IMG/VR virus record: IMGVR_UViG_2913177423_000001
Location: 19,415-83,414 of that record
Strand: one strand, 5' to 3'
DNA length: 64,000 bases
DNA from: a virus
Taxonomy: Duplodnaviria > Heunggongvirae > Uroviricota > Caudoviricetes
In this document: positions 4,398-59,561 of the stretch, piece by piece
Numbering within the stretch: position 1 is the stretch's first letter
How the letters are laid out: every line of letters starts with the position of its first letter
Notes under the pieces: generated by a model
What the model was told of the DNA's origin: nothing
The model's input: only the letters and a program-made list of their open reading frames with translations
Database searches by the model: none
Position numbers and translations under genes: made by a program

Positions 4398-4474
4398 GGT
4401 GGTGTAGCTCAGTAGGATAGAGCAGCAGCCTTCTAAGCTGTCGGTCGGTGGTTCGAATCCACTCACCATCGCCA
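4398..4474 (+). tRNA. tRNA-Arg (anticodon UCU, reads AGA)
   Basis: Cloverleaf folded by hand: acceptor GGTGGTG/CACCATC, D arm GCTC/GAGC, anticodon loop CTTCTAA, T arm GGTGG-TTCGAAT-CCACT, encoded CCA. Confidence 0.9.
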
Positions 4475-4478
4475 AATT

Positions 4479-4554
4479 GCCGATTTAGCTCAGTTGGTAG
4501 AGCAGTCGCTTTGTAAGCGAATGGTCAGCGGTTCGATCCCGTTAATCGGCACCA
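4479..4554 (+). tRNA. tRNA-Thr (anticodon UGU, reads ACA)
   Basis: Acceptor GCCGATT/AATCGGC, anticodon loop TTTGTAA, T arm AGCGG-TTCGATC-CCGTT, encoded CCA; 4 nt after tRNA-Arg. Confidence 0.9.
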
Positions 4555-6026: not shown

Positions 6027-6102
6027 GGCCCCTTAGCTCAGTGGTTAGAGCTGGCGACTCATAATCGCACGGCCATCGGTTCAAATCCGGTAGGGGCCAC
6101 CA
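6027..6102 (+). tRNA. tRNA with CAU anticodon, Ile2 (ileX-like, AUA reader) rather than Met
   Basis: Acceptor GGCCCCT/AGGGGCC, D arm and anticodon stem-loop GGCGA-CTCATAA-TCGC match my memory of E. coli ileX/ileY; encoded CCA. Confidence 0.85.
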
Positions 6103-18952: not shown

Positions 18953-19687
18953 TTAATCAGCCTCCAGTGGCAATAACGCCTTAGCCATTTCATGAATCAG
19001 CATGGCATCAATGACGCCTAGCGTATGGCCCGGCTTAATCTTTAATGCGGCCTCAAGATAGCCTCTTTCCAGAGTGGTTTTTACGCTTTTCCTGGGCGCT
19101 TGTTGGGGACTATCCGGAAGATCCGGATGGTTGCCAGCCTCATAAGCTACCCGCAACCAGTGCATGAATGTTTCCGCAGACACACAACCACAGTCCACAT
19201 CGATTTTCCCGCGTTGCTGTTCCAGCCATTGCTCAAAATCTAACTTGCAAGCCTTACTTTCAAGTTCATCACCATTGAACTCGACTTTCTGCGACGCTAT
19301 GAGAGCGGCTTCGTACTGTTCGCGAGAGACAACTGACTGGTATTCATCGCTATCAAGGTCACGAATTGGAAGCTCAATCTCACGACAAAAATTCCGCCCA
19401 TAGAACTGGTCTTTTTTGTGGTCTGAGCCAAAAGCAAAAGTCGCGCATGGCGCCATTAAATTGACACTGAGTATGTGACAATAACTCATGCCATCAGGCC
19501 ATCCGCCGCACTTAGGCAACTCCTTCACTAATAAGTCGATCAGCTTCATTGTTTTACCATCTTTGCAAGTCGCCAAAGCCATTTGAGCAAGCGCCAATAC
19601 TTCATCTGCCGTATATCCAGCACCGTGACCATACATTTCTATTCGGGAAATAATCTCTGATATACGCTCTTTATTGATTCTGATCAT
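18953..19687 (-). CDS. hypothetical protein, 244 aa
   Basis: ATGA overlap with the upstream gene at 19684-19687. Confidence 0.65.
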   Translation of the reverse strand: MIRINKERISEIISRIEMYGHGAGYTADEVLALAQMALATCKDGKTMKLIDLLVKELPKCGGWPDGMSYCHILSVNLMAPCATFAFGSDHKKDQFYGRNFCREIELPIRDLDSDEYQSVVSREQYEAALIASQKVEFNGDELESKACKLDFEQWLEQQRGKIDVDCGCVSAETFMHWLRVAYEAGNHPDLPDSPQQAPRKSVKTTLERGYLEAALKIKPGHTLGVIDAMLIHEMAKALLPLEAD

Positions 19688-43798: not shown

Positions 43799-44601
43799 TG
43801 CTTGATTCAATAGGTGAAGTTAAAGCCTTCCAAATTCTGTCCGGCGCTGGTGCCTCCACACCGGAATCAATATCCATAAGCCGGGCGGCTTCTTCAAAAG
43901 CTTCGTCACTCGCAAGCGACATACAGGAAATGGTTCATCCTGATAAAACCTATCCTGATTCAGTGTCTGCCTGGACGACTCAATTGCTTGGATTTTCCGA
44001 ACAACTCAATGAGGCAAGCAAGGCATCATCAGCCCTGGCTGACTCTCTTTCCCCATACACGACGCCATCAGAGCTGTTACAGATGAAGATTGGCTGGGAG
44101 TGCCACGCAAAAGGTAATGAACTGATCCCCACGCCAGCGTTCGCCCTGGTTGAGGGGATGGGGAATGTTTCCATACCGCAATCACTAACGGACGCATTGG
44201 CGGCGCTGAAACTTGACGATCTGAATACCGCCATGAACGCCATAAACGCAAAAATTGAAGCTGCCGGGAGTGCTGGGGGTGATAGTGATGGTGGACAGGC
44301 TGGTGGTGGGGCAGCTCAGGCTCCGGACATTACTCAGGATGAAATTGATGATTTACGGGAAGCTGTAACAGTAGCTGAAGTTTCACTCTCCGGGATTAAT
44401 TCAGCAAGTGAGAGTGTCGTAGCCCTTGCTGACCGCATTAAAACGTCAACAACTCAGGCCGCCAAGGGGCTAGAGAACGCTGTAGCCATCACCTTAACAG
44501 GTTCTCTACTGGGCGATGCAGTAATGAGTCCGGCAATCAGTTTAATCATGCCACAAGGCGTTATCGATGCGCTCCAAAAGAGCACCAAAAAGGAACCATA
44601 G
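43798..44601 (+). CDS. hypothetical late protein, 267 aa
   Basis: ATG overlaps the PAAR stop (TAATG); the track start at 43699 would overlap the PAAR gene. Confidence 0.6.
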   Translation: MLDSIGEVKAFQILSGAGASTPESISISRAASSKASSLASDIQEMVHPDKTYPDSVSAWTTQLLGFSEQLNEASKASSALADSLSPYTTPSELLQMKIGWECHAKGNELIPTPAFALVEGMGNVSIPQSLTDALAALKLDDLNTAMNAINAKIEAAGSAGGDSDGGQAGGGAAQAPDITQDEIDDLREAVTVAEVSLSGINSASESVVALADRIKTSTTQAAKGLENAVAITLTGSLLGDAVMSPAISLIMPQGVIDALQKSTKKEP

Positions 44602-52697: not shown

Positions 52698-53405
52698 GTG
52701 AGTATTTTCAGCAGCGTTGGTAGAACGTTGACCACCGCATTGTCATTTAACACGAAATCATTCACCAGCAACCTCATTAGCGACATTCTTGATAAAGCCA
52801 TATCAGGCGGCGGGGTAAGCGGGAATTACAGTAGCGATATTGCCTACGGGAAAAATATTGTTGCTACCGCTATGCGTATCCGTTACGCCCAGGGGTGGCA
52901 GTGGACCGTTGAAGTGGATGGTCTGAACGGCTTCGATATGTTCGTGAAGGATATCACCTACAGCAGTGGGAACATTGAGACAGAAAGCAAGGTGATAGGC
53001 AGCGTGGAGTTCAGTAAGCCAACCTACGTTAGCGCCGGGCCTGTCACTATGACCGTAAGGGATACCGAAGACGGCAAGATCATGAACTGGTTCAAAGAGC
53101 GTCGCTCTCGCGTAACAAATCCGGACGGAACAATAAACCTTCCTCCTGAATATCTGATGAAAATCCGTCTCTACCGGGTAACTCAGGACGGAGGAAAAGA
53201 ACTGGAAGAAGAAATGCGCGTATTTCCTACGCAACTTGGGGAAATCACACGTTCACGTGATCAGGTGTCAGAGTTCTTGTCATACCCAATCACTTTCCAG
53301 AAATACACATCCGCAGGCTCAGGTGTTTCTGCTTTGGTCAACGGTGCAGCAGGTATGGCCACAAGTGCGTTAAAGGGGGCTATCAGTGGAGTGATCAAAT
53401 TCTGA
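52698..53405 (+). CDS. late structural-module protein, 235 aa
   Basis: GTG start after GGAGG; no motif recognised. Confidence 0.55.
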   Translation: MSIFSSVGRTLTTALSFNTKSFTSNLISDILDKAISGGGVSGNYSSDIAYGKNIVATAMRIRYAQGWQWTVEVDGLNGFDMFVKDITYSSGNIETESKVIGSVEFSKPTYVSAGPVTMTVRDTEDGKIMNWFKERRSRVTNPDGTINLPPEYLMKIRLYRVTQDGGKELEEEMRVFPTQLGEITRSRDQVSEFLSYPITFQKYTSAGSGVSALVNGAAGMATSALKGAISGVIKF

Positions 53406-53495: not shown

Positions 53496-53789
53496 TGAGG
53501 GCATTTTTTACATCATCAATCCATCTGTAATGATGGCATTCTTTACACATTCCAATGTAATCAATAAGTTAACCTAACAAACGATTAAGGAAAATAGCAA
53601 TAAGAATGCCAGACACACACGATATAGACTGAGGGTGATTTTTACATAATCATTGTATATCAATAGGTTACATGAAAACCTAAACTATAAACGACAAGAT
53701 ACATGCGATTTAGATGTAAAAATTGCCCTCAATTGCCGATCGTTGAGGGCAAATTCTACACCTACAGAGTGGTGTAAAAATTGCCCTTA
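53496..53789. repeat. incA-like iteron field downstream of repA (five 19-bp iterons, mixed orientation)
   Basis: TGAGGGCATTTTTTACATC 53496(+), TGAGGGTGATTTTTACATA 53630(+), 53713-53731(-), TGAGGGCAAATTCTACACC 53744(+), 53771-53789(-). Confidence 0.7.
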
Positions 53790-54542
53790 AGACTGTTGAT
53801 AGGTAAATTTTATCCTGGAAACTTTGCCGCCTTCCGTCACTTCTGAGAAGACTATTTTCATTTTTGTATTTTTTTCAATCTCTGCTACAGCCTTCGTTAA
53901 AAAACTTCTCTTAAATTCAGCATACCGCTGGTAGCTTTTTGGCAGCCCGTAACGCTCCCGCATCCATTCGACGCCCAGTATGGCAAAACCGCTTCCATCA
54001 TCCTTTCTGTACTGGCATAAGGACTCATAAAGCCGCATAGAATAAGGATTTGTTAGGCGAGATACTTCGGTAAAATTCAGCCTTGTGAATCTCTTATCAA
54101 GCAGAGTAAAAAATGGCATGAGATATGGATTCAGATGAATAATGTAAGTCCCGCGCCGTGGTGAATAGGCATCCTTAATCATCCAAGGATAAGACTCATA
54201 ACTGTCTTCTGATTCAGTCGATTCATCAGGGTTATATATCGTGACTTTCTTCTCGCTAAGTCCTGAGATGGCCTTACGAATATCCTTGCTGGCTTCGGCA
54301 GAGGGCAAATTATACATCTCTGCATATTCGTTGACCGTTAACTCACAGGCACCTGAACCAAGAACGCCATCCTTAGAAGCATAACGAAGTCTTCCCACCA
54401 CAATAAACAACAATCGCTTTTGGTCGCGCGTCAGGTGATAAGCCGCCTCTGTGATCTCGTTGGCCTGGGCCAGACTACGACTAATTGGTGTCGCTGATTC
54501 AATAAGACTGACGGCTTTTGCCGTTAATTCCGCTCTGTTCAT
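53787..54542 (-). CDS. repA: iteron-binding replication initiator RepA (Rep_3-like)
   Basis: Flanked on both sides by 19-bp iterons. ATG at 54542 chosen; the track TTG at 54575 lies inside an iteron. Confidence 0.75.
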   Translation of the reverse strand: MNRAELTAKAVSLIESATPISRSLAQANEITEAAYHLTRDQKRLLFIVVGRLRYASKDGVLGSGACELTVNEYAEMYNLPSAEASKDIRKAISGLSEKKVTIYNPDESTESEDSYESYPWMIKDAYSPRRGTYIIHLNPYLMPFFTLLDKRFTRLNFTEVSRLTNPYSMRLYESLCQYRKDDGSGFAILGVEWMRERYGLPKSYQRYAEFKRSFLTKAVAEIEKNTKMKIVFSEVTEGGKVSRIKFTYQQS

Positions 54543-54566
54543 AACCCTGTGTGATCCTTCAAATGG

Positions 54567-54684
54567 TGAGGGCAATTTTTACATCACTTTGAGGGTAATT
54601 ACTACACCTTTTGAGGGCAAATCTTACACCTTCTGAGGGCAAATCTTACACCGATCACGCTTAGTTGAGGGCAAATCTTACACC
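54567..54684 (+). repeat. incC-like array of five direct 19-bp iterons upstream of repA (origin core)
   Basis: TGAGGGCAAATCTTACACC-type repeats starting at 54567, 54590, 54612, 54634 and 54666. Confidence 0.8.
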
Positions 54685-54891: not shown

Positions 54892-54929
54892 CTGGAAAAT
54901 GAACAGATACCTGCTTATCGGAGGAATAC

Positions 54930-55751
54930 TTGAACATTCCAAAATTCCCATTGCCTTCCCGCCCTGAGACAGAAATTCAGTTCCACGCACCCACCGTGAA
55001 GGATGCGCTGAAATATTCTGACCTGAACCCGGCAGAAGATGAAGCAACTACTACAGAGTACCTGAACTCTATGCAGGATGGCGAAATTAACGACAGTGCT
55101 TACTGGACAGTCCAGGATCGCAGAACTGCCCTTTGGTGGATATTTGTTAATTCACGTCCCGATGCAGTAATGACCTACTCCTATGAGTGCAGTCACTGCG
55201 GTAATACGCATCACGCTGATATAAACCTGAGCGATCTGGCTCAAACAGTAGAGATACTCACTGTACCGCCTTACGTAAAAACCAACGTACCGGTAAACGG
55301 TGTACCAACTGACTGGATACTTAAACCATTAACCGGGAAAGGCGCGGAACTCCTTGAACGTATGCGTGCGTCACTTCCTGATATGAAAAGCCCTGAATAC
55401 AGTGCAGGCGTGGCCCGTATGCGCATTGCAGAACTCGCTTTATGCACGGCACTGGACGACGATCCGGAAGACTTCACTCAAGCAGCTAACCGCCGTTTCG
55501 ACATCATTGAAAGCATGGCGCTTGAAACGGAGTTTACTCCGCTTGTAGCTCGCATACAGCTTATGCAAAAAGACCTTCGCCACGGCCTGAAAATGTCTAT
55601 TGAGAGAGGCAAAAGCCGCCTAATCCTGCCTCCGCAACATTGCAAAAACGCTAAGGAGGGTGCAGACGTGACTACCACGCTGTACGTCCCCTTTCTCAAT
55701 AGAGAGTTTATCCCATCAATTAGATCTGAATGGATGGCTAACCATTATTAA
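54930..55751 (+). CDS. putative tail assembly chaperone (gene preceding the tape measure)
   Basis: TTG start, position immediately upstream of the tape-measure gene, and a CSHCGNTHH Cys/His cluster. A second frame continues to the tape-measure start. Confidence 0.5.
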   Translation: MNIPKFPLPSRPETEIQFHAPTVKDALKYSDLNPAEDEATTTEYLNSMQDGEINDSAYWTVQDRRTALWWIFVNSRPDAVMTYSYECSHCGNTHHADINLSDLAQTVEILTVPPYVKTNVPVNGVPTDWILKPLTGKGAELLERMRASLPDMKSPEYSAGVARMRIAELALCTALDDDPEDFTQAANRRFDIIESMALETEFTPLVARIQLMQKDLRHGLKMSIERGKSRLILPPQHCKNAKEGADVTTTLYVPFLNREFIPSIRSEWMANHY

Positions 55752-55871
55752 CAACCTGACTCTGTATGGATATCAGCCTGTTAGTGACGTTGAACAATTA
55801 CCGCAATGGCGAGCACTCCACATGTCAAAAGCCCTGGAAGAAAAATACAAAGCTCAAGCCGGGAATAAACG

Positions 55872-58800
55872 TTGATCGCCGCTGGCAAAAGAGAGGTTAT
55901 TTTGAAAGAGAATAAAGACCGCATCGCAATAATTGACGCTATTCAGGGGGCGAGCACAAACGAACTCAAGGCTCTTGCTGAGATCAAAGACGCCATTCTC
56001 TCTGGTAGAGGGTCTATAACTCAACTTAATGAAAGGCAGGGTAAAGTTAGTCAAAGACTATCCCGTAGACGCATAGCAAGCGAACCCGATGCCTCTGATG
56101 ATGCCAAGAATACCCAGGCCAACCCATATATAAAGCGCCTTCCGATGAAAAAAGGGAGGACACAGGTCAACAACGGAGAAAAACGACTCATTGTTGCAAC
56201 CAACACATCAGAGCGCGTTCATTTTGCGTCATCACGCCAGTCCGCCCAAAAGTTGAAAGGTTCTGTACCAGTAGCCGCCAATTCTGCCCCTCTTGAACCA
56301 CAATCCCCCCAAAGCCAAAAAGGACCGCTTCGGGATAGTAATGGACGCTTTGTATCCCAGAAAAACAACGAGGATATAGCCAGAAAAAAAGAATGGCAGA
56401 ACGCACGTAAGGCCGACGCCAAACTACAAGAAGGCTTCCTCCGGAAATTAGGCTCCATTATGGGGGTAGATGGCAATCGGTCTTCCAGTGAAGAGTCCTT
56501 AACAGATGCCGCAGGTGTCGGCGCTGGTGGCCCGTTGTGGATGGCTGCTCGCGGCATGTACGACATTACTAAAGAGATCACAGGTAAAGCAGAATCTCTT
56601 AAAGAATGGGTAGAAAAGGGGAAAGGTGAGGCTTCAGCTTCAAAAGTGACATCGCCAGCAATCACTTATCCGGCAGCGGTGAATGCTCAAAAAGCAACAT
56701 CCGCAAAAGCGTTTAATAATGCTGTTGAGACAAAATCCACACAGGCAGTAGAAGAGCAAACAAAAATCCTTCAGACCAATGACAACAAAATAATTGATGG
56801 TCTGGAAAATGTCTCTGACGAAGTAGTTAAACTCCGCAAATCGGTGTCTTCTGGGAATAAGTTCGGCTTAAGTGATCTCTGGAGAAATCGACAAGGCGGA
56901 AGAAATAAAATCAATTTTGGCGATCAGACAAGTAAAAACAAAAGGCGTAAATCGAAAAGGAAAGGTCGCAATCTGGGGAAAAAAGCCCTTTCCGTTGGTG
57001 AAAAAGCCGCTGCCGGAACCGCTGCCGCTGGAGCTGGTGCCGGAGCTGCAAAGACTGTTAAAACAAAGGTTAGTAAAGCCAAAGACATCAGCACCACTAG
57101 CGACGTATCTAAGGGTATTGGTAAAGAGGCAAAAAACACTGCAAAGGCAGTTAAGCCAGTAGGTGTAGTTGCCGAAGAGGCCACAATTAAAACAGGTGAA
57201 ACTGTTGCAAAGAAAAAAACCGAATCCGTAGCCCTCAAAAGTGCTGCAAAAATAGGCGTTAAATCAGCTGCATCTACAGCTGCAAGAGCTATCCCGATCA
57301 TCGGATCGCTGGCTATGGCGGGATATGACGCAATAGATGGTTACACTGATACAGATGCGCAAAAGGCAGCCTTTGGCTTAAGTGATGATGATGCAGTATC
57401 CACACAGCAAAAATCCGCTTACGCAACAGCTAATGTGCTTGATATGGGCGGCTTAGTGTCGGGCGCAACCAACCTGATAGGCAAAGGGATTTCTGCGTTA
57501 GGCTTCGAAAGGGCAGGTGAAAAACTTCAGAATTTTGATACCGGAGATATTGCTCGTGGTGTTAATGGCGCAGTAGATATCACTAAATCTGCTTTTGGAA
57601 GCCTTAAGGATAAATTTTTATCCACTGATGAAAACACGAAGCAAGTAAAAAAAGCGGTTGAGGATGGCACCAAGAAGACTGTCGATGCGATTCATTCTTT
57701 AGGTGAGCAGCTACAAGGCGGGCGTGATGGTGAAGATGGTGTTGGTGAGCACGGGTATACTTCCCCGGCTGAATTTAATGCCCCTACCAGCAACACCATT
57801 GCAGCGGATCTGAATATTGGTGGCAGCAACGCTAAAAACCGCAATTACCGGAATAATAATCTCGGCAACCTTGTTTTCGCTAATCAGGAAGGGGCGACGC
57901 TGGAAGCGCCAAATGCAAAAGGTGAGCAACGTTTTGCGCGATTTAACACGCCTGAAGAAGGGATCAGGGCGCTGGCAAACCAGGTGTCAAGCTATTACAA
58001 CGGCACCAGTGCCGCAGCGGGACACCAGAAGTTACAGACGGTATCAAGCATCATTTCCAAATGGGCGCCGCCAAATGAGAACAATACCAATCAATATATT
58101 GATAACGTCAGTAAATATCTTGGCGTCTCGCCTAATGAAAAAATAGATGTCAGCAACCCAGAGGTTATGACGCAATTAGTTCGTGCAATAGCAACGAAAG
58201 AAGGCGGAAACCCGGCGGTTAACAATGAGTTCATAAAGAATGCTCTTGGGACATTCAACGCAAATACTGGTCGTTGGGAAGGGCGTTTCTCCGATGAAAC
58301 ATTGGCGCGACTTAATAAAATTCAGAAAGAGAATGGCGGTCAGCTAATTGCTCGTGATTCGCAATATAGCGTTGGTCGCAAGGTGAAATATGCTGATGGA
58401 ACATCTCCGGCAAAATCTGTATTGAATGCAGTTCCAACAGCAACACCTAAGCCAATTGAAGTTGCACAACATGCCCAGGCAGCCAAAAAGCCACTAAAAC
58501 CAGGCAACCAACCACAACCGATTAATCCAGAGAACGCTGATGTTAATACCGGCACGCCATCAAGTTTGCCTGAGCGGTTAATCGCCATAAATGAAAGCGG
58601 AATTAGTGGCGTAACTAATTTGTTTGGCGGCGCGGCTACCAGCCTTGCTGGAACACACCTGGACTTGGTGAAGGATTTTGCGTCGGCTACTTCATTAGGT
58701 TCTGTATCTTCGCTTTCCGAAAAAGCGAAGGGAATGGACCAGGCTCTGACTGAAAAAATATCCGGATTAACAGGCAAACCTTTTGGATTCAAAAAAGCCT

Positions 58801-59561
58801 CCCAGGTAGCTGATATCAGAGAGGCTATACAAAAAAGGCCAACCCATGAACGCGATATATCTTCAGTCGATCTTCTCGCTGGCGCGTCACAGCCAACAGA
58901 GAATAAAAAAACACCTGTAAACCCAAAAGGGATTCCGGTCTATGACAATGGCTACAAGGTAATAGACGGCGAAGATAAGGGATTTCTTGGCTCTTTGTTT
59001 GATTCGTCATTAACAGGCATGAAGCGCATTGGTTCGGCTGTATTACCTGCAATTGGTGACAACGTTTCACAACTTGTAGGCGGCATCGATGGCACTGGCA
59101 TATTGAATGATTTTGTCTATCAGGCTACAGGGCAGAATTCAACAATCGCCAGGGCGATTAGCCCACTTACAAGAAGTGCTGGTGGTTGGCTAAATAATGG
59201 CATTCAACAAACCGCTGATAGCATCAGGGGAATATCAACTGAGGCAAATAATGCCATATTTGGCTCTGCGTCAGCCGTGCAGGAACCTTTTCTTGCTATG
59301 CCGCCACAGCTTCCCACTGTAACCGATCTTGCTCGAAGCGGAATAAGGCAACCATTAACTACTGACACTGCAAATAACGATCCTGCTATGTTGAAGGCAT
59401 TGGATAACGTCTGTTCTATCCTGAACGACCTTCTGAATGTGAGCAAAAATAATACGAAAGGCGATCCGGATAAGGTTGTCAAAACATCGCAGCCACAGCC
59501 GCGACCACGTGCGAGCACAACCATTAATGACCCGTCGCTGGATGCTCTGCTTGAGGATTAA
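55872..59561 (+). CDS. tape-measure / injection protein (P1 Sit-like), 1229 aa
   Basis: Very long Ala/Lys/Gly-rich ORF with an internal globular module (NLGNLVFANQEGATLEAPNAKGEQRFARFNTPEEGIRALANQV...ISKWAPPNENNT). TTGA coupling to the upstream alternative frame. Confidence 0.75.
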   Translation: MIAAGKREVILKENKDRIAIIDAIQGASTNELKALAEIKDAILSGRGSITQLNERQGKVSQRLSRRRIASEPDASDDAKNTQANPYIKRLPMKKGRTQVNNGEKRLIVATNTSERVHFASSRQSAQKLKGSVPVAANSAPLEPQSPQSQKGPLRDSNGRFVSQKNNEDIARKKEWQNARKADAKLQEGFLRKLGSIMGVDGNRSSSEESLTDAAGVGAGGPLWMAARGMYDITKEITGKAESLKEWVEKGKGEASASKVTSPAITYPAAVNAQKATSAKAFNNAVETKSTQAVEEQTKILQTNDNKIIDGLENVSDEVVKLRKSVSSGNKFGLSDLWRNRQGGRNKINFGDQTSKNKRRKSKRKGRNLGKKALSVGEKAAAGTAAAGAGAGAAKTVKTKVSKAKDISTTSDVSKGIGKEAKNTAKAVKPVGVVAEEATIKTGETVAKKKTESVALKSAAKIGVKSAASTAARAIPIIGSLAMAGYDAIDGYTDTDAQKAAFGLSDDDAVSTQQKSAYATANVLDMGGLVSGATNLIGKGISALGFERAGEKLQNFDTGDIARGVNGAVDITKSAFGSLKDKFLSTDENTKQVKKAVEDGTKKTVDAIHSLGEQLQGGRDGEDGVGEHGYTSPAEFNAPTSNTIAADLNIGGSNAKNRNYRNNNLGNLVFANQEGATLEAPNAKGEQRFARFNTPEEGIRALANQVSSYYNGTSAAAGHQKLQTVSSIISKWAPPNENNTNQYIDNVSKYLGVSPNEKIDVSNPEVMTQLVRAIATKEGGNPAVNNEFIKNALGTFNANTGRWEGRFSDETLARLNKIQKENGGQLIARDSQYSVGRKVKYADGTSPAKSVLNAVPTATPKPIEVAQHAQAAKKPLKPGNQPQPINPENADVNTGTPSSLPERLIAINESGISGVTNLFGGAATSLAGTHLDLVKDFASATSLGSVSSLSEKAKGMDQALTEKISGLTGKPFGFKKASQVADIREAIQKRPTHERDISSVDLLAGASQPTENKKTPVNPKGIPVYDNGYKVIDGEDKGFLGSLFDSSLTGMKRIGSAVLPAIGDNVSQLVGGIDGTGILNDFVYQATGQNSTIARAISPLTRSAGGWLNNGIQQTADSIRGISTEANNAIFGSASAVQEPFLAMPPQLPTVTDLARSGIRQPLTTDTANNDPAMLKALDNVCSILNDLLNVSKNNTKGDPDKVVKTSQPQPRPRASTTINDPSLDALLED

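Follow-up and report, generated by a model that had tools for sequence, protein, structure and literature searches.

Frameshift-extended tail assembly chaperones are known from phage lambda (gpG and gpGT) and phage P2 (gpE and gpE+E'), and the paradigm of tail-chaperone frameshifting reportedly goes back to Xu, Hendrix and Duda in 2004. Here we describe a locus of this known kind, i.e. a tape-measure chaperone that appears to be extended by +1 slippage at a UUU_Y site, in a stretch of 64,000 nucleotides (nt) from a virus of the Caudoviricetes (IMG/VR record IMGVR_UViG_2913177423_000001, positions 19,415 to 83,414). We refer to this whole stretch as the window. The locus consists of a pmgB-like gene and a second open reading frame (ORF), which overlaps the 3' end of pmgB in the +1 direction and ends just before the tape-measure gene sit. 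From sequence comparisons, we put the probability at about 0.85 that programmed +1 frameshifting at positions 55692-55695 yields both PmgB (273 amino acids, aa) and a fusion protein of 314 aa, analogous to gpG and gpGT of lambda.

Tail chaperone genes use -1, -2 (phage Mu) or +1 shifts, and in bacteria UUU_Ynn favours +1 slippage to an unusual degree, even if no stop codon is present (PMC5009743). Shifts of +1 at UUU_Y have been described for YopN-TyeA of Yersinia (UUU_UGG) and for PA-X of influenza A (UCC_UUU_CGU), and do not need a 3' structure (PMC5009743). In phage P1, pmgB was proposed to encode a tape-measure chaperone on the basis of its gene position; no frameshift was reported (PMC9024508).

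The locus shares several features with lambda and P2. The pmgB gene lies directly upstream of the tape-measure gene, its 3' end is overlapped by a startless second ORF that terminates shortly ahead of the tape-measure gene, and this arrangement is conserved regardless of sequence similarity, with two frames that are kept separate and never fused. Moreover, P1 requires its pmgB homologue to form tails, and the protein was not detected in virions (PMC9024508). In contrast to lambda and P2, the predicted shift is +1 at UUU_C instead of -1 at an X_XXY_YYZ heptamer, PmgB has a large body, with 255 shared residues and a CxxC..H motif (versus about 90-140 aa), and the extension is short (59 aa). Furthermore, PmgB belongs to another family (phrog_1854), with a predicted fold that matches T4-like baseplate hub assembly proteins.

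Like the tail-chaperone gene of Mu, pmgB would be a myovirus gene with its extension in the +1 (equivalently -2) frame of the upstream ORF. However, Mu uses a -2 shift, which adds a residue, whereas at the pmgB site re-pairing after a -2 shift is not conserved and a +1 slip fits. PmgB also resembles T4 gp51 as a non-virion assembly factor encoded upstream of the tape-measure gene; unlike pmgB, T4 gene 51 abuts gene 27 without room for an extension, and no frameshift is known there. As at other UUU_Y sites, tRNA-Phe on UUU can re-pair perfectly one base on, the next codon may be a slow one, and the CCC_UUU_CGG of P1 closely mirrors the UCC_UUU_CGU of PA-X. Unlike those sites, the pmgB site would serve a ratio of phage morphogenetic proteins, is followed by CUC in the clade of the window, and has a conserved Shine-Dalgarno (SD)-like element 27-37 nt upstream.

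In the literature and annotation on P1, D6 and relatives we found no report of a tail-chaperone frameshift in pmgB, although Xu et al. may have mentioned one. The unusual traits of the predicted system are the +1 direction, the PA-X-like UUU_CGG, the large chaperone body with its T4-hub-assembly-like predicted fold, and the distant SD-like element.

Conservation of the two reading frames

An earlier note, made from the letters of the window only, had described an ORF of 273 aa with its stop at 55749-55751, a gap of 120 nt up to a TTG at 55872, and a second frame open from 55672 to a TGA at 55873-55875. This frame was said to overlap the last ~26 codons of the upstream ORF and to have no canonical start codon ahead of a late ATG. 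These coordinates all proved correct, and the frame (position mod 3 = 1) contains no ATG, GTG or TTG ahead of the ATG at 55822. The +1 frame of the window reads ...SIESLSHQLDLNGWLTIINNLTLYGYQPVSDVEQLPQWRALHMSKALEEKYKAQAGNKR*. A run of this length was free of stops in 1.7% of mononucleotide shuffles, so that openness alone is weak evidence.

We therefore relied on comparative data. A total of 88 related loci, with 39-99% identity in PmgB, was obtained from genome and viral contig collections, and five more distant loci (33-38% identity) came from Photobacterium, Thaumasiovibrio, Aeromonas and metagenomes. Dereplication at 90% identity resulted in 28 clusters, which together with the five distant loci make up 33 representatives.

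In all 93 loci, including P1, the +1 frame is still open at the frame-0 stop and terminates shortly before sit, at a distance that hardly varies (26 nt in the window). The position of the frame-0 stop itself was variable, with products of 262-297 aa in the related loci. The conservation in related phages that the earlier note had proposed to check was thus found in every relative, down to 33% PmgB identity. The peptide encoded by the +1 frame is conserved as well, with the consensus ..GW.T(I/L)(I/V).NL.LYG.QP..D(V/I)..LP.WRA..MN.AL.EKYK.. across Enterobacterales, Aeromonas, Photobacterium and Thaumasiovibrio. When the two frames were joined at the proposed site, the fusions of the 28 clusters aligned without gaps from the shift Phe to NLxLYG, and the peptide was also conserved in the five distant loci.

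The two frames are never hard-wired as a fusion in the collections that were searched. None of the 89 homologues in a collection of 5.8 billion proteins was an in-frame fusion, and all matches broke off at the shift site, ~81% of the way through the fusion. No fusion was found among 1.84 billion representative proteins searched with the 59-aa extension, and the RefSeq and D6 annotations contain no joined coding sequence.

As the earlier note had cautioned, a single-base difference would fuse the frames. What looks like two frames might be one ORF that has lost a base, either through an indel in sequencing or assembly or in a decaying pseudogene. However, 93 independent loci have the same arrangement (of the first 88, 58 have a unique sequence in this region), including the independent P1 records AF234172, AF234173 and AF035607 and complete RefSeq plasmids, while neither protein collection holds a fused version. 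Decay is also contradicted by the frame-0 tail, which is conserved past the site. Judged by the comparative sequence data, this explanation is effectively refuted.

Coding signal of the +1 frame

Variable sites were counted per frame-0 codon position within five clades. In the D6 clade, the 765 nt upstream of the site had 60, 29 and 197 variable sites at positions 1, 2 and 3, respectively (286 in total). The 57 nt of the overlap had only four, all at position 1, and such a near-absence of variation is expected for dual coding. From the frame-0 stop to the +1 stop (121 nt), the variable sites numbered 35, 12 and 5 (52 in total). Upstream of the site the peak was at frame-0 position 3 in all five clades, whereas in the extension it moved to the third position of the +1 frame. 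This peak in the extension was also clear in three other clades (21/6/3, 8/3/1 and 21/5/1), and the P1 clade had only three variable sites there.

Codon differences gave a similar picture. In the 56 codons past the site, 71-94% of the single-base codon differences were synonymous in the +1 frame; the corresponding values were 4-32% for frame 0 and 0-15% for the third. For the D6 clade, they were 88% in +1 versus 4% in each of the other frames. By these substitution patterns, the +1 frame after the site is protein-coding, in agreement with the earlier description of its translation as protein-like. Because the +1 frame is open in 93 loci, its peptide is conserved and its substitutions are synonymous in +1, the comparative data are decisive and exclude that it is open by chance.

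A further alternative holds that positions 55766-55901 encode an N-terminal extension of Sit, and that the +1 frame is open by chance only. The records of D6 (NC_050154, 40834-44616) and RefSeq (NZ_AP027678, 77428-81210) indeed begin the transglycosylase Sit at an ATG located 15 nt past the pmgB stop (55766 in the window), with ~31 added residues that overlap the +1 extension, and this frame is continuous with sit in many D6-clade variants. However, it is broken by 1-nt indels or a stop in the window and at least five more of the 18 D6-clade variants, is absent in P1, JK004 and other clades, and is the frame with 0-15% synonymous differences. The Sit family profile phrog_7182 (positions 1-1228) aligns with Sit residues 1-1219 counted from TTG 55902 and thus begins at the residue of that codon. 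The N-termini of Sit in P1 and JK004 align to the same TTG, and the TTTTG start and the SD of sit are conserved while the upstream frames vary. These alignments indicate that sit probably starts at TTG 55902, not at 55872, and they make an extended Sit barely credible. The letters of the +1 TGA do overlap the TTG at 55872-55875 (TTGA), as the earlier note had observed, but this overlap is incidental if the conserved start of the tape-measure gene is TTG 55902. Many public records would then have a wrong Sit start, which runs through the coding region of the extension.

In frame 0, the tail past the shift site (55698-55751 in the window) is itself conserved as RNxxF(I/L)Pxx. In the most divergent relatives (loci L011, L045, L048 and L092-L096) this tail ends 9-10 codons past the site. 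Loss of that stop, with secondary read-on, seems to explain the longer tails of D6 (18 codons) and P1 (38 codons).

The probable shift site

In some relatives, stop codons in both frames leave only a few codons in which the shift can occur. In seven representatives a +1-frame stop lies two codons ahead of a conserved Phe codon, and in eight representatives the frame-0 stop comes just 9-10 codons past it. Within this interval only TTT_C is invariant, with TTT in 33 of 33 representatives and C as the next base in 32. The TTT column is the sole single-codon column among 83 columns with a conserved degenerate residue. Phe is encoded by TTT in 54% of cases in these genes, and a second conserved Phe five codons further on varies freely. 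Re-pairing of tRNA-Phe in the +1 direction, from UUU to UUC at UUU_C, is possible and invariant across the family; the CCC_U that precedes it in the window could allow +1 re-pairing as well.

The codon after TTT is CGG in 24 of the 33 representatives, while CGG accounts for 19% of the Arg codons in these genes. Elsewhere it is CTC (the clade of the window), CGC, CAA, CAC or TGC (a few), or TGG (one P1-clade variant). Position +8 from the start of the Phe codon is T in 32 of 33 representatives. Since this T fits the middle base of an I, L or V codon in the +1 frame, while the frame-0 residue at this position varies (N, P, A, G, S, R, C or Y), the +1 frame appears to be read from the very next codon. 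These conservation patterns argue that the +1 frame is entered at UUU_C.

The earlier note had placed the shift at CCC_UUU_C (55689-55695). Its UUU_C part was confirmed as the invariant element of the stop-bounded interval, but the preceding codon is not conserved (CCC, CCA, CAG, CGA, GGC and others). Rather than CCC, the essential element thus seems to be UUU_C followed by a putatively slow codon, namely CUC in the clade of the window and CGG in most lineages. In P1 (NC_005856), the homologous TTT is located at complement 44591-44593 and is followed by CGG, with a predicted fusion of 316 aa. The +1-frame stop of P1 lies at complement 44422-44424, and the short and long products of P1 would have masses of about 33 and 36 kDa.

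The variant with TGG is locus L073, a P1-clade contig from IMG/VR. It has TTT_TGG for TTT_CGG, which changes Arg to Trp in frame 0 and leaves the +1 product unchanged; UUU_UGG is also the YopN-TyeA motif of Yersinia (PMC5009743).

The same fusion could in principle be made by a -2 ribosomal shift, which leads into the same frame and is known from the tail chaperone of Mu (PMC5009743), or by slippage of RNA polymerase on the short C4T3 run of the window (55688-55694). After a -2 shift, however, tRNA-Phe would land on CCU, GAU, GCU or AGU, depending on the lineage, and none of these is conserved. Transcriptional slippage requires long homopolymers, whereas only T3 is conserved here and its flanks vary. 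The gap-free alignment of the fusions fits a +1 shift, although by itself it could accommodate one extra residue. We consider both routes quite unlikely.

Proposed mechanism and products

We infer the slippage mechanism and the chaperone roles of both products as follows. Most ribosomes would stay in frame 0 until the TAA at 55749-55751 and produce PmgB of 273 aa. A minority, with peptidyl-tRNA-Phe on UUU (55692-55694), would stall while a poorly supplied codon occupies the A site, namely CUC here and CGG in most relatives. The tRNA-Phe would then re-pair on UUC one base on, so that C55695 is skipped and 59 codons are read in the +1 frame up to the TGA at 55873-55875. The predicted long product consists of PmgB residues 1-255 joined to SIESLSHQLDLNGWLTIINNLTLYGYQPVSDVEQLPQWRALHMSKALEEKYKAQAGNKR, with a mass of 35.5 kDa and 41 residues more than PmgB. 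By analogy with lambda and P2, the shared N-terminal body may bind and chaperone the tape measure Sit, and the rare C-terminal extension may bring in or nucleate a further component of the tail, with the tube or the hub as the most likely candidate; tail assembly would in that case require a fixed, low ratio of the long to the short product. Predicted junction peptides of the fusion are GADVTTTLYVPFSIE (GluC, window) and LWVPFGLPISFHR (tryptic, P1).

The identification of a frameshift-extended tail chaperone shifting in the +1 direction, already suggested in the earlier note, is supported by the position of the gene, the conserved two-frame arrangement, the switch of coding frame and the boxed-in shift site. 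Several observations weigh against it. A prfB-like stimulatory SD, ~3 nt upstream of the shift codon, is lacking; the one SD-like element that is conserved ends 27-37 nt ahead of this codon. RNAalifold predicted no pairs among the 33 representatives, neither from -6 to +84 nor from -48 to +12 around TTT, and a search of Rfam gave no match. In the clade of the window the A-site codon is CUC, which makes up 10% of the Leu codons of the window, and not the rare CGG, so that a 'hungry codon' model is weaker here. Finally, the extension was modelled with low confidence, with block-mean values of the predicted local distance difference test (pLDDT) of 46-72 in a homologue-based model that has no alignment depth in this part. 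An SD stimulator of the prfB type is not obligatory at UUU_Y sites (PMC5009743).

A single-sequence model of the fusion had a pLDDT of 35, and no fold could be assigned to the extension from the predicted model. The extension did not match any Pfam or PHROG family. The RNA fold of the window itself was unremarkable (z = -1.5).

P1 has been a workhorse of Escherichia coli genetics for 70 years, and phage-plasmids related to P1 and D6 are common carriers of resistance genes in Enterobacterales. Current annotations of P1, D6 and RefSeq show pmgB simply as a hypothetical gene or as a 'head morphogenesis' gene. Every such annotated genome would be missing one essential gene product if the frameshift is real. 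It would also add a naturally selected bacterial +1 frameshift at UUU_CGG, and such sites are scarce outside prfB. Moreover, it would link the PmgB family, with its predicted T4-like hub-assembly fold, to the universal logic of tape-measure chaperones. Practical bearings would include the engineering of P1-based delivery vectors and the frameshift-aware annotation of phages. In P1, a pmgB deletion was only weakly complemented in trans (4.7-fold), and several other genes in that study were complemented poorly as well (PMC9024508). The weak complementation of pmgB could reflect a clone without the full extension frame.

The upstream SD-like element

The internal SD-like element AAGGAGG covers codons K242-E243-G244 of pmgB, at synonymous positions that are conserved, and its distance to the shift codon downstream is 33 nt in the window. 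AAG was used in 22 of 24 clusters and GAG in 26 of 27, although AAA and GAA are preferred elsewhere. The element occurs 20-60 nt (mostly 27-37 nt) upstream of TTT in 31 of the 33 representatives, and similar motifs occur elsewhere in pmgB about once per 770 nt.

With such an element upstream, the +1 frame could be an independent small gene with its own, possibly non-canonical, start. ORFs of 31-89 aa are occasionally called in the +1 frame of some relatives, and JK004 has an annotated gene of 29 aa (gene_9) there. However, these calls begin at different, non-homologous positions, and the +1 frame contains no conserved ATG, GTG or TTG; in the window and in loci L005 and L092, there is no start codon before the site or within 20 codons after it. 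The distance of 27-37 nt from the SD-like element to the site also argues against this alternative, and in most representatives no start codon follows the element in any frame. Furthermore, the seven representatives with a +1 stop two codons before TTT nevertheless show +1 conservation from the very next codon. We therefore regard a separate small gene as highly improbable, and retain +1 frameshifting as the most likely origin of the extension.

The SD-like element and the CGG codon might tune such frameshifting. A trailing ribosome that is queued at the SD-like element, about one ribosome length upstream, could set the dwell of the leading ribosome on the slip site. The CGG codon in the A site could in addition make the product ratio, and hence tail assembly, dependent on the supply of the tRNA-Arg that decodes CGG, and so tie the ratio of PmgB to extension to the growth state of the host. 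Two such tuning features have no precedent in tail-chaperone recoding, and we propose them only tentatively, as a rather doubtful refinement. If both were true, they would represent a distal, collision- or queue-based stimulator of bacterial +1 frameshifting.

Family and predicted fold of PmgB

PmgB of the window has 98% aa identity to the 'PmgB-like' protein of D6 and 40% to PmgB of P1, and it matched the profile phrog_1854 with an E value of 8e-135. Residues 12-104 matched PF12322 (T4_baseplate) with 23.7 bits, just below the gathering cut-off of 24.5, and 15 of 37 members of the PmgB family matched this domain at E <= 0.01. Comparisons of PmgB with T4 gp26 and T4 gp51 by hhalign were weak, with probabilities of 22% and 11%, respectively.

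The predicted model of PmgB, based on 65 homologues, was confident for residues 1-260 (mean pLDDT 89.5, predicted template modelling score 0.85). In BFVD this model matched many models annotated as 'baseplate hub assembly protein, T4-like' or 'baseplate hub subunit', with E values down to 2e-10. The models thus point to a likely distant kinship of PmgB with T4 gp51-like hub-assembly proteins (PF12322), at a domain score below the formal cut-off for membership. Foldseek found no matches of the PmgB model in the PDB, and no sequence relatives of PmgB with solved structures were found. The position of the gene, the P1 phenotype and the architecture of the frameshift would accordingly be the main grounds for the chaperone assignment of PmgB, with modest structural support.

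The AlphaFold model of PmgB also showed a weaker resemblance to solved tail assembly chaperones (HK97 2ob9 and YqbN 3klu). This resemblance between models hints that T4-type hub-assembly factors and tape-measure chaperones may be related. In addition, a set of residues, C87-x2-C90...H94...C238, is conserved in the PmgB family, which suggests a metal site at C87, C90, H94 and C238.

Gene order and genomic context

The coordinates of the features are listed in Table 1. In this region, the window has 92% DNA identity with Escherichia phage D6, and ~100 plasmids of ~90 kb from E. coli, Salmonella and Shigella match it at ~93-96%. Because of these identities, we assign the window to the P1-like phage-plasmids of the D6 clade.

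Table 1. Features of the pmgB-sit region, in positions of the window.
Feature	Position	Strand	Evidence and remarks
tub (P1 Tub homologue, tail tube)	52698..53405	+	phrog_1842 'tail tube protein', E value 6e-98; D6 record 'similar to P1 gene tub'
SD GGAGGA of the pmgB-like TTG	54920..54925	+	Read in the sequence; 4 nt before TTG 54930
pmgB-like gene, frame 0	54930..55751	+	TTG start, TAA 55749-55751; unshifted product of 273 aa, 31.0 kDa
Internal SD-like AAGGAGG (codons K242-E243-G244)	55653..55659	+	Conserved synonymous positions; 33 nt upstream of the shift codon
Predicted frameshift cassette CCC_TTT_CTC	55689..55697	+	TTT 55692-55694, P-site slip codon; C55695 skipped; CTC 55695-55697, frame-0 A-site codon
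Dual-coding overlap	55696..55751	+	Last 18 frame-0 codons of PmgB and first codons of the +1 extension
+1 extension	55696..55875	+	59 codons (SIESLSHQ...AGNKR) and TGA 55873-55875
Non-coding spacer with sit SD GAGAGG (55891-55896)	55876..55901	+	1-nt indels and divergent sequence among D6-clade variants
sit, tape measure / injection transglycosylase	55902..59561	+	Conserved TTG start (probable); start of the longest ORF is TTG 55872

The genes of the module are arranged in the order tub, pmgB and sit, followed by homologues of pmgA, bplA and gp16. Hence, pmgB lies downstream of the tube gene and directly precedes the tape-measure gene. In P1, tub and pmgB are adjacent, whereas in the D6 clade a rep gene on the opposite strand is inserted between them. 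In the window, this is a replication initiator gene (RepB/RepA-like, phrog_4402) at 53787-54575 on the minus strand, which is also present in D6 and not in P1.

Three phage tRNA genes were found at 4398-4474, 4479-4554 and 6027-6102 of the window. They encode a tRNA-Arg (anticodon TCT, which reads AGA), a tRNA-Thr (TGT) and a tRNA with a CAT anticodon (Met, or Ile if modified with lysidine). Neither CGG nor CUC is read by any of these three tRNAs (Arg-UCU, Thr-UGU and CAU). The early codons past the shift site include ATA in the +1 frame and AGA in frame 0.

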